A stretch of DNA of 64,000 nt. Source: an uncultured Nitrososphaerales archaeon. Lineage in GTDB: Archaea > Thermoproteota > Nitrososphaeria > Nitrososphaerales > Nitrososphaeraceae. Shown here in pieces: positions 15,001 through 18,000 of this stretch. A program made the position numbers. The DNA is taken from the NCBI GenBank assembly GCA_963713605.1, contig CAVQMO010000001.1:608001-672000 (forward strand), read 5' to 3'. Position 1 is the stretch's first letter, and each line of letters opens with the position of its first letter.

Positions 15001-18000
15001 TTGACTTGTTTACTCGTATGACCTTCAAAACGGTCTTCTGTTTAGGTCGGATGTACCTTTCGATGTTTCTGATCCATCCTGTAGCTATCTCGGAAATATG
15101 GAGAAAGCCAATCGTTTCGTCGTATTCATCAAGAGTTATATAAGCTCCATGACCAGTCACCTCCTTTATCGTCACTAAAACGATTTCCCCTTCTTCAGGA
15201 AGCCGTCTGACCTCGGCAGTCATCATTTATAACGGTAAACGCCACACTTCGGCTACTTTAACGTTGCCATTAGACTAACGAGCGCAGGATTTGAACAAGA
15301 AGTGGGATCAATTAATGCATTCTGAGTTTTATGACAATCTAAGTTTTGGTCCAGTGGTGACAGATTTAGTGAAGGTAGGGTTACTTACTCTTGCGCAGCG
15401 TCCTAGTAGAGATCGTACCCAAGTGTGAAAATACGGCTAACAAAAGGACCCAATACCTAATAGTCAATGCCCTTCATTGCCTTTACACCATTCCGAAATG
15501 GATGTTTTATTTCTTTCATTTCTGTGACCATGTCAGCAAGTTCTATTAGTCTTGTTGGTGCATAGTTTCCTGTTAGGATTAATGAGGTTCGTCTTGCCTT
15601 GCATTTCAAGAGATCAAGGGCGTCTTCGATAACAATGAGCTTTAACTTCAAAGCATAGTTAATTTCATCTAGGATCACCAAATCGTAATCCCCCGAGCTG
15701 ATTTTCCTCTTCGCGATATCTACGGCTAAGCTTTGCGGCTGCTTGATGCTCTTCCAAAGGAAGATCATCATCAATGATCCCGACAAATCCCCTACCCGAT
15801 ACTACCATGTCAAATTCTGGTTCGAGCCTTTTTGAGCTTGTTAGTTCCCCATAATACCATTCTCCCTTGATGAATTGAATCATCGCTACCCTCCGACCAT
15901 GTCCAACTGATCGCAAAACAATCCCTAGCGCTGCACTTGTCTTTCCCTTCCCCTTCCCAGTAAAGATTACAACTATTCCTTCTTCTTTTTCTTCTCCTTC
16001 AGTCATACTAGTTTGTTATCCGTACATCGAAGGGATTGTAATATATTTGATGTCGAGTTCGAATTTGCTTATACGTCGCTTGCAGCGATAGGATTAATCT
16101 GTTTGTGTTCTTCATAAACGAATATACAACGATATCATTTGCAAGTTATTGCATATAACTGGCTCATGAAAAGAATACTGCATTCCTTGCAAATGATGGC
16201 GGGTAAAGTATGCGAGTTCGTCCTTCCCATACGATTATCATATGAAATGGGAAACGGCAAAACCCTTGCTATCTGCACACTCTCAGACATGAGTCTTCTT
16301 AAGGAAATTATTTCCAGTAAGGATATTATGCGCAGGATTTTCCTTGTCGGAAGACTTCTCTCTGAAAATCGGGGTATCGATAATATTCTTGAGACCATTC
16401 ATACTTCCCCTCAAATGAGGTATTTGATTTTATGTGGGAGAGATGTCAAGGGACATCTACCTGGACAAGCCCTGATTTCGTTGTACAAATACGGAACTAG
16501 AGACAACGGGTATATAGTAGGTGCAAGAGGGAGTAATCCCACACTAAAATCGACCAAGGAAGCGATTATGTACTTCAGGACTAATATCGAAATAGTCGAC
16601 CTTATTGGTAGTAGGGATATCTGGCAATTAAAACTCCTAATAGACGAATTAATCGGACAATAAAAGTAGGCTGTTCTTAATAATCGTCAAGTAACCAACA
16701 ATGTAGAAAGCAGGGATCGAATCTGTTACAAATGATGATGATGTTAAGATGAGGCGTAACCAAATTAATGAACCAGCGATTTAATGTAGGTCGTATCTCA
16801 TGGAGGTTTCATGTACTTTAAAACCCGTTTTCTGATAAAAACTGATGTTAGTGTCGGAACAATCCAACACAACCTTGTAGCAACCAGCTGCCTTCGCAAA
16901 ATGTAATGCGTGATTAATAAGTGCAGAGCCTATCCCGAGACCTTCGAATCCCTTGCGTGTTACGACGTCCTCAATGTGACCCGCCTTTCCCCCACTATGA
17001 ATAAATTTCTGCTCGACTAGCAATGTAGTCGCGCCCATCACCTCGCAGGTCTCTTTGTCTATCGCAACAAATATTCTGTGAAGTGGATTTGCACTAATAT
17101 TGTTTAGGATCTGTTCTGCTTTCTCTATATTCCCTTCAATGGTCCCTAATTCGGACAAATTCTTTAGCGTGGAGAAGTATCCGTTTTTTAGGTCGCCTAT
17201 TTCAATTTCTCTTATTTCGAATTTTAGGTCTTCCTTGCTCTTGTTCATAAAACTTCCTCCAACAAGATGAGCATTGAACCAAACTTATACCTTGACACGA
17301 GACCGTTTCTCATCGTTTAGTGAGCCCTAATTCGCTTGTGTTTGCTGCTTTGATGATGATGAAGATATGCTAGCTTCATCTCCTCTACCCATGCATTTTT
17401 CATCTTGTATAACCTCTTTTGCTCGCGAGGCTTACACTCAGCCATAATAAATGCTGCCCAAGATGGGAAAATAAACTGATGAATCTCCGTAAACTATCAC
17501 ATTTCCCTCGTGTGCAGATTTGATTTTCCCCCAGCTTTTGCCCTCTTGTAGTGTGGCGCCGGACAGTCCTCCAGTGTCAGGACGGGCATCTGTGAATTGG
17601 ACGAGATAATCCTGTCCCCCTTCTTTTAACTTAAGGATTTGGAACAGAGCAGGGCCGGTCTGTTGGAAGAAGTTCTTAGGAACCCCTCCTCCTAGTTCAA
17701 TTCCTCCAGATATCTTATTCTTCCAAAGAATAGCTGCTGATTCTGCGACATCCAATATCACGTTAGGGCTAATTGGTTTGTCTTCAAGGAGAAGAGGAAG
17801 CATATTTAGCCCAATCGAAGAATCGGCTACAGCAGGTAGGTAAATCGGTACGTCGTTTTCGTATGCACACACTGTGAAAGATTTTTCAGGATGTGCTGAG
17901 TTTTTTCTTGCTGACTTCCCTAATATGTTACACAAGTCGGCTGTTGATGAATTGTCAGGCAGAATTTGTCTATCAGTTTCTATTGCTGCTTTGATGATCT

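Follow-up and report, generated by a model that had tools for sequence, protein, structure and literature searches.

A soluble MtrA-like protein of ammonia-oxidizing archaea keeps a putative cobamide site and recurrently neighbors a PPOX-class oxidoreductase gene

The stretch of DNA analyzed here (64,000 nucleotides, termed the window herein) comes from an uncultured Nitrososphaerales archaeon and carries a gene for an MtrA-like protein beside the gene for a corrinoid adenosyltransferase, CobA. The features of the locus, in window coordinates, are the following.

14256-14420 and 14423-15226, minus strand: Nop10 and eIF2-alpha, a synteny block that moves with cobA in Nitrososphaeraceae and lies outside the proposed function
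15457..16006, minus strand: CobA/CobO/BtuR-type ATP:corrinoid adenosyltransferase gene, now broken into ORFs 15665-16006 and 15457-15786, which overlap
15728..15729, no strand: extra base splitting CobA, AA here and A in 15/15 related loci
16007..16165, no strand: divergent spacer between cobA and the MtrA-like gene, 159 bp, with two conserved AT-rich boxes
16166..16663, plus strand: MtrA-like gene (PF04208), 165 aa, soluble, with H97 as presumed cobamide ligand together with E67 and N68, and no C-terminal helix

The first CobA ORF, 15665-16006(-), matched positions 2-83 of the 172 positions of PF02572 and the second, 15457-15786(-), matched positions 83-172; CobA is read as two ORFs owing to a single additional base near 15728. 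This base is missing from near-identical short-read contigs of two studies (one contig from run X1 and two from run X3), and the split is, as had been proposed, probably an assembly indel. The initial annotation placed the two genes back to back; they are in fact divergent, head-to-head across the 159-bp spacer. One AT-rich box on the cobA side (16039-16051) and one on the MtrA-like side (16113-16128) are conserved in 12 aligned genus-level loci, with a variable middle between them and no shared operator seen, and the two might be separate archaeal promoter boxes. In an Rfam scan of the window, neither a cobalamin riboswitch nor any other RNA was found close to the MtrA-like locus. One 197-nt contig of an RNA-library run (X17) covers 15748-15942, within cobA, and none covers the MtrA-like gene; contigs from RNA libraries are no proof of transcription and missing cover is uninformative.

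The MtrA-like protein scored 79.8 bits with the Pfam family MtrA (PF04208; gathering cut-off, 25; E = 2.4e-22), its residues 26-164 aligning with profile positions 15-150 of 173, and phmmer comparison with the PDB recovered 5LAA (2.8e-19) and 5L8X (1.4e-18) over residues 59-163, figures that reproduce exactly those reported before. An alternative TTG start at 16139 had no backing from homolog starts in the alignment. A family profile matched 5LAA/5L8X with an E value of 1e-27. The AlphaFold model (pLDDT 85) had the same two structures as its best Foldseek matches (TM 0.77, E = 1.7e-13), with 32-33% identity over 146-148 aligned columns. Scores fell far below the NCBIfam cut-offs for both the canonical MtrA equivalog TIGR01111 (81.3; cut-off 249.15) and the subfamily NF002126 (89; cut-off 161). 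The chain stops where the soluble domain stops, the canonical juxtamembrane segment and transmembrane helix being missing, and no membrane helix was detected in the protein, for which the Kyte-Doolittle 19-residue mean peaks at 1.2. A search of the ESM Atlas returned only MtrA-family clusters of ammonia-oxidizing archaea (AOA). Judged by its sequence and its predicted structure, this is a soluble single-domain MtrA-fold protein, most likely cytoplasmic.

In the phmmer alignment to the PDB entries, H97 corresponds to His84 of MtrA, the cobalt ligand, E67 to Glu54, and N68 to Asn55 (the roles of these residues and of the meander motif are given in PMC4915002). The histidine had earlier been judged from a single pairwise alignment, and its conservation is now confirmed: 42 relatives from four families show no change at the positions equivalent to His84, Glu54, Asn55, and Gly57, and the H97, E67, and N68 positions are invariant also in a separate alignment of 26 relatives. 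None of the residues equivalent to those contacting cobalt or the nucleotide tail in 5LAA varies across the four families, and an aromatic residue equivalent to Tyr18 is retained. At the Thr53 equivalent, a nearly invariant position among relatives, the window protein has Ser, and the meander motif of MtrA, GAIPF/Y-x-EN, has become GSNPTLKS. Two cysteines, Cys16 and Cys37, are invariant and specific to the MtrA-like AOA clade. The conserved residues make it quite probable that the MtrA-like protein binds a cobamide, and the predicted mode is most likely base-off/His-on via H97, backed by E67 and N68.

Cytoplasmic or short copies of MtrA are known from methanogens (Wagner, Ermler and Shima 2016; PMC4915002). 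Like these copies and the cytoplasmic homolog of Methanothermus fervidus (5LAA), the MtrA-like protein consists of one soluble Rossmann-type domain (about 165-180 aa) and has no juxtamembrane or membrane segments, and it has His84, Glu54, Asn55, and the tail-pocket residues in common with 5LAA. However, the short methanogen copies (170-180 aa) are 60-97% identical to truncated MtrA, whereas for the MtrA-like protein (165 aa) the value is only 32-33%; it also lacks GAIPF/Y-x-EN, has the two invariant cysteines and other gene partners, and belongs to an aerobic ammonia oxidizer in which mtr, mcr, and MtrH genes were not found. With MtrA of the Na+-pumping methyl-H4MPT:CoM methyltransferase MtrA-H (5L8X, 8Q3V, 9QTQ) it shares the Pfam family, fold, and cobalt-ligand residues, but it has neither the C-terminal anchor nor the partner subunits (mtrEDCBAFGH) and stays below the equivalog cut-offs. 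In the 87.5%-complete genome that contains the window, searches for MtrH (PF02007), MtrE, and MCR_alpha found no match and the MtrA family matched only once; within the 64-kb window there are no mtr genes. The lone, anchor-less homolog outside any mtr or mcr context that was first described stands.

The distribution of this protein was examined in 301 genomes of the order, with families coded f1 (Nitrososphaeraceae), f4, f9, f13 (Nitrosopumilaceae), and so on. The ~160-aa form was present in 149 of the 166 genomes of four amoA-bearing, corrin-making families (f1, 69/73; f4, 7/9; f9, 10/11; f13, 63/73) and was not found in the other, non-AOA families of the sample, in agreement with the earlier statement that it is widespread in ammonia oxidizers. 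Within these four families amoA was found in 162/166 genomes (0/134 elsewhere), CbiC in 164/166, and CobA in 165/166. The protein tree follows the families, with the window genus on a long branch (1.21), and it indicates that the MtrA-like family is vertically inherited in these corrin-synthesizing lineages. Families f12 and f14 carry a different, 256-aa form of MtrA in the order ArsP - 256-aa MtrA - ArsR; the shorter AOA form stands apart from this arsenic-linked form as a clade of its own, and its neighbors are PPOX, cobA, and dUTPase_2 genes.

Gene neighborhoods were compared across 60 genus-spread MtrA-like loci, 20 from Nitrososphaeraceae and 40 from f4, f9, and f13. A gene for a ~130-aa PPOX-class split-barrel oxidoreductase lies directly upstream of the MtrA-like gene on the same strand in 21/60 loci from three families (f4, 6/6; f9, 6/9; f1, 9/20), with a spacing of -39 to a few nt, and it is found upstream in 25 of the best 80 loci. 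It is a tighter and more widespread neighbor than cobA and had not been noticed in the initial annotation. Its product matches PF01243 and, below the cut-off, PPOX-class F420 families and PDB 1RFE, which makes it a candidate flavin or F420 oxidoreductase of the split-barrel type. F420 is described as common in Thaumarchaeota, and FDOR-B enzymes as reducing tetrapyrrole-derived substrates (PMC8498797). In N. viennensis, the PNPOx-related gene NVIE_004240 is followed by the MtrA-like gene NVIE_004250, eight genes, cbiD, cbiG, cbiC/X, cbiA, cobO (NVIE_004400), eIF2a, and nop10 (PMC7785015), and the transcript values of the first two genes are close (7.66 and 7.75; PMC7785015 supplement 3). The two genes are unlinked in the window genus, where the PPOX gene of the window genome has moved away to contig 1, 396015-396413 (contig coordinates), and in f13, where the distance between them ranges from 7 kb to several hundred kb; unlinked PPOX genes are surrounded by parvulin, DUF2203, and helicase genes, with no hint of B12.

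Among the f13 genomes (n = 73), 55 have both genes, 8 only the MtrA-like gene, 1 only the PPOX gene, and 9, spread over five genera, neither; the Fisher p of 2e-6 for this co-occurrence overstates the case because related genomes are not independent. Seven f1 genomes have the MtrA-like gene without a PPOX gene and four show the reverse. PPOX-like homologs with weaker scores also occur in 54/134 non-AOA genomes that lack the ~160-aa MtrA-like protein (for example, 36/74 in f10). A complex prediction for two PPOX-like chains with the MtrA-like protein (locus L120) gave a score of 0.00, that is, no answer, and speaks neither for nor against binding. The PPOX adjacency can, like that of cobA, be explained by one ancestral arrangement.

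We tentatively favor a reading in which the MtrA-like and PPOX-like proteins form an accessory pair, one holding and the other reducing cobamides, that feeds B12 use. In this model, free or mis-liganded Co(III)/Co(II) cobamide would sit on the MtrA-like protein and receive reducing equivalents from the PPOX-like partner, after which the reduced cofactor would be open to adenosylation by CobA or to other B12 enzymes. The head-to-head cobA of the window is in keeping with such a role but is no independent proof of it. CobA is kept in all 73 Nitrosopumilaceae genomes, and the nine that lack both genes still keep CobA and CbiC, so that the pair is dispensable for B12 synthesis and adenosylation. 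CobR of Brucella, which reduces cob(II)yrinic acid diamide with a flavin, has a split-barrel fold, and the PPOX partner would resemble it in fold class, as an analogy of function and not as a sequence relationship. Reduction for the CobA of Salmonella is driven by flavodoxin, and corrinoid processing in humans involves CblC/MMACHC. The pair would work by analogy with these systems, a flavin-type reductant acting on a corrinoid held by a protein ahead of adenosylation or loading. For Co(II)/Co(I), F420H2 or a flavin by itself has little reducing power, which counts against reduction driven by the PPOX-like protein. To our knowledge, a corrinoid holder of the MtrA fold has no precedent in B12 trafficking, and we know of no account of corrinoid reduction and transfer ahead of adenosylation in archaea.

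It is also conceivable, though unlikely, that the MtrA-like protein is the methyl-carrying corrinoid protein of some AOA methyltransferase pair, with the PPOX-like protein as its reductive activator. The family is known only for cycling between Co(I) and methyl-Co(III) with a His-Glu linkage (PMC4915002), all studied members (MtrA) carry methyl, and the His, Glu, and Asn are invariant. Price et al. (PMC7857596) predict MtrA as the methyl donor to the core methionine synthase in methanogens, which would suit such a role, as would metK within about 4 kb of the MtrA-like gene in g2, g6, and g7 loci and, in a single g5 locus, a Pterin_bind gene 1.5 kb upstream. Against it, metK belongs to the synteny block already described, a methyltransferase gene is a conserved neighbor in none of the four families, and in the window genome neither MtrH nor PF01717 (the MetE-type catalytic domain) was found, while a MetH-type ORF with pterin, B12, and activation domains is present. 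The findings on MtrH, PF01717, and the MetH-type ORF were also the reason to reject a methionine relay of MtrA, MtrH, and core MetE.

Further down in probability is the role first proposed, in which the MtrA-like protein is a cobamide escort specific to the adjoining CobA and loads adenosylcobalamin enzymes such as methylmalonyl-CoA mutase. We consider this improbable. The head-to-head arrangement fits, cobA stands beside the MtrA-like gene in 16 of the best 80 loci, every sampled family with the ~160-aa form also has CobA, and in g6-type loci and N. viennensis the MtrA-like gene maps to the margin of a cob cluster, with cobO 10-20 kb away. However, cobA lies within 2.5 kb in only 13/60 loci, all from Nitrososphaeraceae genera g1, g2, g4, and g7; it is divergent at 0.16-2.4 kb in these 13 of the 20 Nitrososphaeraceae loci and adjacent in 0/40 loci of f4, f9, and f13, the distance in f13 being 47-132 kb. 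One or two events suffice to explain this, since the cobA-adjacent genera amount to one clade (g2+g4+g7, support 83/78) plus g1, whose placement is not settled by the tree. The adjacency looks like one rearrangement at the cob cluster edge in one family and hence gives no independent proof of the proposed role; eIF2a and Nop10 travel with it to the same extent, a sign of block synteny. Other observations also count against CobA as the specific partner: 23/134 non-AOA genomes have CobA without the ~160-aa form, the nine f13 genomes keep it without the MtrA-like gene, and each gene has its own spacer box. Under copper limitation in N. viennensis, cobO (log2FC -1.18), cbiD (-0.84), and cbiC (-0.79) decreased, with no co-regulation of the MtrA-like (-0.29) or PPOX (-0.08) genes (PMC7785015), an observation that weighs against the favored pair as well. 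For the mutase we found no specific support; its small subunit adjoins MeaB, of the known mutase chaperone family, elsewhere in the window genome. Of the initial annotation, the soluble MtrA fold, the ligand residues, the spread among AOA, and the neighboring cobA hold up; the working partnership with CobA lacks support in the form proposed.

There is a similarly small chance that the MtrA-like protein keeps the fold off the catalytic B12 path, as a sensor or regulator, a store, or a binder of another ligand, and that its neighbors reflect inherited order. A single ancestral arrangement (PPOX - MtrA-like - convergent dUTPase_2) could account for all three recurrent neighbors, and the most widespread of them, the convergent dUTPase_2 gene (34/60 loci), has no evident B12 link. 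The diverged meander motif and the long branch of the window genus could point the same way, as could the absence of NVIE_004250 from the LFQ table of one N. viennensis proteome, a table that includes NVIE_004240. Such a role sits poorly with the invariance of the cobalt- and tail-contacting residues, with retention in 149/166 AOA genomes, and with a presence/absence pattern in f13 that matches that of the unlinked PPOX gene.

More doubtful still is a narrower version of the pair, an AOA-specific B12 repair system that would be a counterpart of CblC on the MtrA fold. Here the MtrA-like protein would capture nitrosyl- or nitrocobalamin (from the cell's own NO and nitrite) or aquocobalamin (from oxygen), and an F420H2- or flavin-dependent partner would strip the spoiled upper ligand to give cob(II)/(I)alamin for CobA and MetH. 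This fits the confinement of the ~160-aa form to amoA families, its absence from f12 (a non-AOA, B12-producing family with CbiC in 6/10 and PPOX in 0/10 genomes), and the reported build-up of NO2-cobalamin in stressed AOA (Heal et al. 2018, as cited in PMC6908642).

A thymidylate role, prompted by the dUTPase_2 neighbor, was dismissed: ThyA was not found in the window genome, ThyX is present, and dUTPase_2 is convergent and not co-oriented. The DegT aminotransferase gene that overlaps the MtrA-like start in Nitrosopumilaceae and lies two genes upstream in f4 was read as synteny, and a conserved hypothetical gene adjoining the MtrA-like gene in g3, g4, and g6 (unk397) had no Pfam, PDB, or Atlas match.

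For the MtrA-like protein, the new elements are the delimitation of its clade, a candidate for its redox partner, and lineages without either gene that serve as natural "knock-outs." If it does condition B12, the MtrA fold would gain a role in B12 handling instead of methane metabolism, in organisms that are among the main cobalamin makers in oceans and soils (PMC6908642); if it is instead a methyl carrier, AOA would have an unrecognized methyl-transfer route. Literature searches on MtrA, cobalamin, and corrinoids in AOA and Thaumarchaeota found no paper on the MtrA-like protein in AOA, the "MtrA" of PMC4084955 being a two-component regulator and not the corrinoid protein. NVIE_004250 is annotated as "putative methanogenesis methyltransferase subunit," and such labels have stood on aerobic nitrifiers for a decade.

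The window holds an MtrA-like gene that lies head-to-head with a corrinoid adenosyltransferase gene (cobA) across 159 bp, an arrangement that the initial annotation had described as back to back:

15457-15786, - strand, CobA/CobO/BtuR adenosyltransferase, second ORF (profile positions 83-172)
15665-16006, - strand, CobA/CobO/BtuR adenosyltransferase, first ORF (profile positions 2-83 of 172)
16166-16663, + strand, MtrA-like ORF, 165 aa, Pfam MtrA (PF04208)

Pfam MtrA matched residues 26-164 of the MtrA-like protein (79.8 bits, E 2.4e-22), and the solved soluble MtrA domains 5LAA (2.8e-19) and 5L8X (1.4e-18) matched residues 59-163, exactly reproducing the PDB figures reported previously. 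With a profile of 26 relatives, the match to solved MtrA rose to 1e-27 and the alignment reached residue 24. Among solved structures, the closest to an AlphaFold model based on the same 26-relative alignment (pLDDT 85, pTM 0.78) were 5L8X and 5LAA (TM 0.77, E 1.7e-13), with the next fold far behind. The earlier observation of a soluble MtrA-family protein near a CobA-type gene is confirmed. No hydrophobic helix is present (hydropathy over 19 residues peaks at 1.2), and the protein stops at the end of the soluble domain; soluble MtrA copies are likewise known from methanogens. It scored far under the cut-offs of the NCBI curated MtrA models (81 versus 249 and 89 versus 161) and, judged by sequence, belongs to the Pfam family but not to the MtrA equivalog. 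The genome (4.09 Mb, 15 contigs) carries amoA together with single matches to MtrA and to CobA, the latter split; MtrH, MtrE and MCR_alpha were not found in this 87.5%-complete assembly.

The cobA split is likely an assembly indel, as previously suggested, because the extra base is absent from related loci and from short-read contigs. Just a single additional base sets the window apart (AA at 15728/15729, versus A in 15/15 aligned related loci), and near-identical contigs from two coded sequencing runs of two studies lack one letter at 15728 (X1, one contig; X3, two contigs), this evidence being contigs, not raw reads, from runs either of which may be the source sample. Single bases at 16026, 16741 and 16743 are missing from the same contigs as well. 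Single-nucleotide insertions seem to be scattered through the assembly. A urea transporter gene (25418-26624) is likewise in two ORFs, and a PEP-mutase/ICL-like gene in two ORFs (3093-3972) and an SSF transporter fragment (23642-24466) are similarly split or truncated.

According to Wagner et al. (PMC4915002), His84, with its link to Glu54, holds the cobalamin of 5LAA; a propionamide is bound by Asn55, Lys52/Thr53, Gly57 and Asn64 fix the nucleotide tail, and Tyr18 and Val61 sandwich the base. Counted along the alignments with solved MtrA structures, the equivalents in the MtrA-like protein are H97 (His84), E67 (Glu54), N68 (Asn55), S66 (Thr53), G70 (Gly57), I74 (Val61) and Y27 (Tyr18), and those of His84, Glu54, Asn55 and Gly57 are invariant among 42 relatives from four families. 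We infer that the protein would bind a cobamide His-on in the cytoplasm. In contrast, the MtrA meander motif GAIPF/Y-x-EN, which the same source connects with the transfer of energy to the membrane complex, reads GSNPTLKS here, and C16 and C37, invariant in the clade from ammonia-oxidizing archaea (AOA), are not conserved in 5L8X.

A scan of genome contigs returned 403 related stretches, the best 80 of which carried Nitrososphaerales or Nitrosopumilales names, except for seven labelled Thermoproteota only. Family searches covered 301 genomes sampled evenly from the order, including the unpublished genomes G260 and G271, and compared the four amoA-bearing families (f1, Nitrososphaeraceae; f4; f9; f13, Nitrosopumilaceae) with the other 16.

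Genomes with a match, by family
MtrA family: f1 69/73, f4 7/9, f9 10/11, f13 63/73; AOA families 149/166; other 16, 9/134 (f12 6/10, f14 3/4)
amoA: f1 69/73, f4 9/9, f9 11/11, f13 73/73; AOA families 162/166; other 16, 0/134
CbiC: f1 72/73, f4 8/9, f9 11/11, f13 73/73; AOA families 164/166; other 16, 6/134 (all f12)
CobA: f1 72/73, f4 9/9, f9 11/11, f13 73/73; AOA families 165/166; other 16, 23/134

The matches in the non-AOA families f12 and f14 are a different, higher-scoring form of 253-257 aa, encoded between ArsP permease and ArsR regulator genes (loci L089-L097). Given these tallies and this distinct form, the ~160-aa form tracks the ammonia-oxidizing, corrin-making families and not CobA as such. 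In a maximum-likelihood tree (61 sequences) the branching matches the families, and inheritance is therefore vertical; the branch of the window's genus is long (1.21).

CobA fell inside the 6-kb flank at only 16 of the best 80 loci. Gene order was tallied at 60 loci spread over genera, chosen against close-relative bias (f1 20, f4 6, f9 9, f13 25).

Neighbors of the MtrA-like gene at 60 loci
CobA, divergent, within 2.5 kb: f1 13/20 (genera g1 1/1, g2 5/5, g4 3/3, g7 4/4), f4 0/6, f9 0/9, f13 0/25; total 13/60
PF01243 (PNPOx_N) gene, immediately upstream, same strand: f1 9/20 (two are fragments), f4 6/6, f9 6/9, f13 0/25; total 21/60
dUTPase_2 gene, convergent, abutting: f1 10/20, f4 0/6, f9 0/9, f13 24/25; total 34/60

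Genera g2 and g7 have eIF2a and CobA on the minus strand, followed by PNPOx and MtrA-like on the plus strand; the window's genus has lost PNPOx from this locus but retains a copy on contig 1 (396015-396413). In g6-type loci and in N. viennensis, whose published tables give the same arrangement (PMC7785015 supplement), a cobA-eIF2a-Nop10 block forms the end of a cob cluster and lies 10-20 kb from the MtrA-like gene, and by this gene order the window's block is that same cluster end. The block abuts the MtrA-like block head-to-head in g1, g2, g4 and g7, of which g2, g4 and g7 form one clade (support 83/78) with g1 beside it without a resolved position, so that one or two rearrangements suffice for the adjacency. 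An aminotransferase gene (DegT/DnrJ/EryC1) overlaps the MtrA-like start by 4-8 nt in f13 (L106, L102 and 23 other loci), which suggests co-transcription with a sugar-aminotransferase gene; in f4 the DegT family lies two genes upstream. In g5 the PNPOx and convergent dUTPase_2 genes stay together, and the MtrA-like gene has moved to a site where a Pterin_bind (PF00809) gene and a gene for a winged-helix regulator lie 1.5 kb upstream (L189 versus L129). The protein 'unk397' (NVIE_004270 in N. viennensis), conserved, hypothetical, ~320-390 aa long and without Pfam, PDB or Atlas match, adjoins the MtrA-like gene in g3, g4 and g6 (L126:2934-3902 and relatives), lying in g4 between cobA and the MtrA-like gene; in the window's genome it occurs near 368 kb of contig 12 and near 173 kb of contig 1.

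The PNPOx gene encodes a PPOX-like protein of ~130 aa that matches PF01243/PF12900 and mycobacterial Rv2991 (1RFE, 5.5e-7), with matches below the curated cut-offs to PPOX-class F420-dependent families. A profile of 24 copies gave strong matches (E of 1e-25 or better) in f1 66/73, f4 8/9, f9 10/11 and f13 56/73, weaker ones in non-AOA families (e.g., f10 36/74) and none in f12 (0/10). In f13, where the pair never lie next to each other, 55 genomes have both, 8 only the MtrA-like gene, 1 only PPOX and 9 neither (Fisher p 2e-6, a value that exaggerates the association, the genomes being related and hence not independent). The nine genomes with neither span five genera, and CobA, CbiC and amoA are in all 73. 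The pattern is looser in f1 (MtrA-like only, 7; PPOX only, 4). Transcripts of the N. viennensis counterparts NVIE_004240 (PPOX-like) and NVIE_004250 (MtrA-like) were similar (7.66 and 7.75 under RPKM headings, seemingly log scale), and neither changed significantly under copper limitation, when cobO, cbiD and cbiC fell (PMC7785015 supplement). One proteome quantified NVIE_004240 and the hypothetical NVIE_004270, the latter ~10x as abundant, with NVIE_004250 in the identifier table only (PMC12542715 supplement).

Tentatively, the MtrA-like protein and the split-barrel oxidoreductase may form an accessory module that would keep cobamide usable and reduced, for delivery to CobA or other B12 enzymes. 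CobR, flavodoxin/CobA and CblC offer analogies for such an action. This proposal stays below even odds because the module is dispensable, as the nine AOA genomes without the pair indicate, and because PPOX-like genes also occur without the MtrA-like gene. A methyl-carrier role is unlikely. We favor a redox over a methyltransferase partner because no methyltransferase partner gene was found in the genome, because the PPOX gene is the neighbor kept across three families, because both genes share the f13 presence/absence pattern though unlinked, and because F420 is common in Thaumarchaeota and the oxidoreductase superfamily includes reducers of tetrapyrrole-derived substrates (PMC8498797). The initial annotation had proposed a CobA-specific escort loading B12 enzymes; its interpretation was partly supported, but CobA lies within 2.5 kb at 13/60 loci, in part of f1 only, which argues against CobA as the specific working partner and leaves that reading improbable. 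It is about equally doubtful that the fold was kept for another or no B12 role.

MtrA homologues, with His84 mostly kept, are also described from non-methanogenic archaea and bacteria (Wagner et al., PMC4915002); Adam et al. (PMC9635834) consider it unclear what MtrAH does outside methane metabolism, and Price et al. (PMC7857596) predict that in methanogens MtrA supplies methyl groups to MesA. Readings that pair a soluble MtrA-like gene with MtrH/MetE, with ThyA-like genes or with an arsenic operon were tested and do not fit this locus, although the arsenic form does occur in f12 and f14. The open-access literature searched yielded no paper treating the AOA protein. New here are a separate clade of the soluble MtrA fold that spans the AOA, its function still putative, a candidate partner for it, and lineages in which it has been lost naturally.

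Elsewhere in the window, a urease operon (27474-35194) runs ureA, ureB, ureC, a thermosome/Cpn60-type chaperonin gene (30120-31703), unusual in this setting, then ureE, ureF, ureG and ureD. The sole Rfam match in the window, 5_ureB_sRNA (28418-28697, antisense inside ureC), is probably a coding-sequence echo. Two deoxyhypusine synthase paralogues (17438-18421, -; 19116-20144, +) flank a BON-domain gene (18545-18895), a trio kept in 11/11 genus-level loci with enough flank. A small RNase H/RVT_3-like ORF (2485-2841, -) stands alone near a glycosyltransferase cluster (4062-10895).
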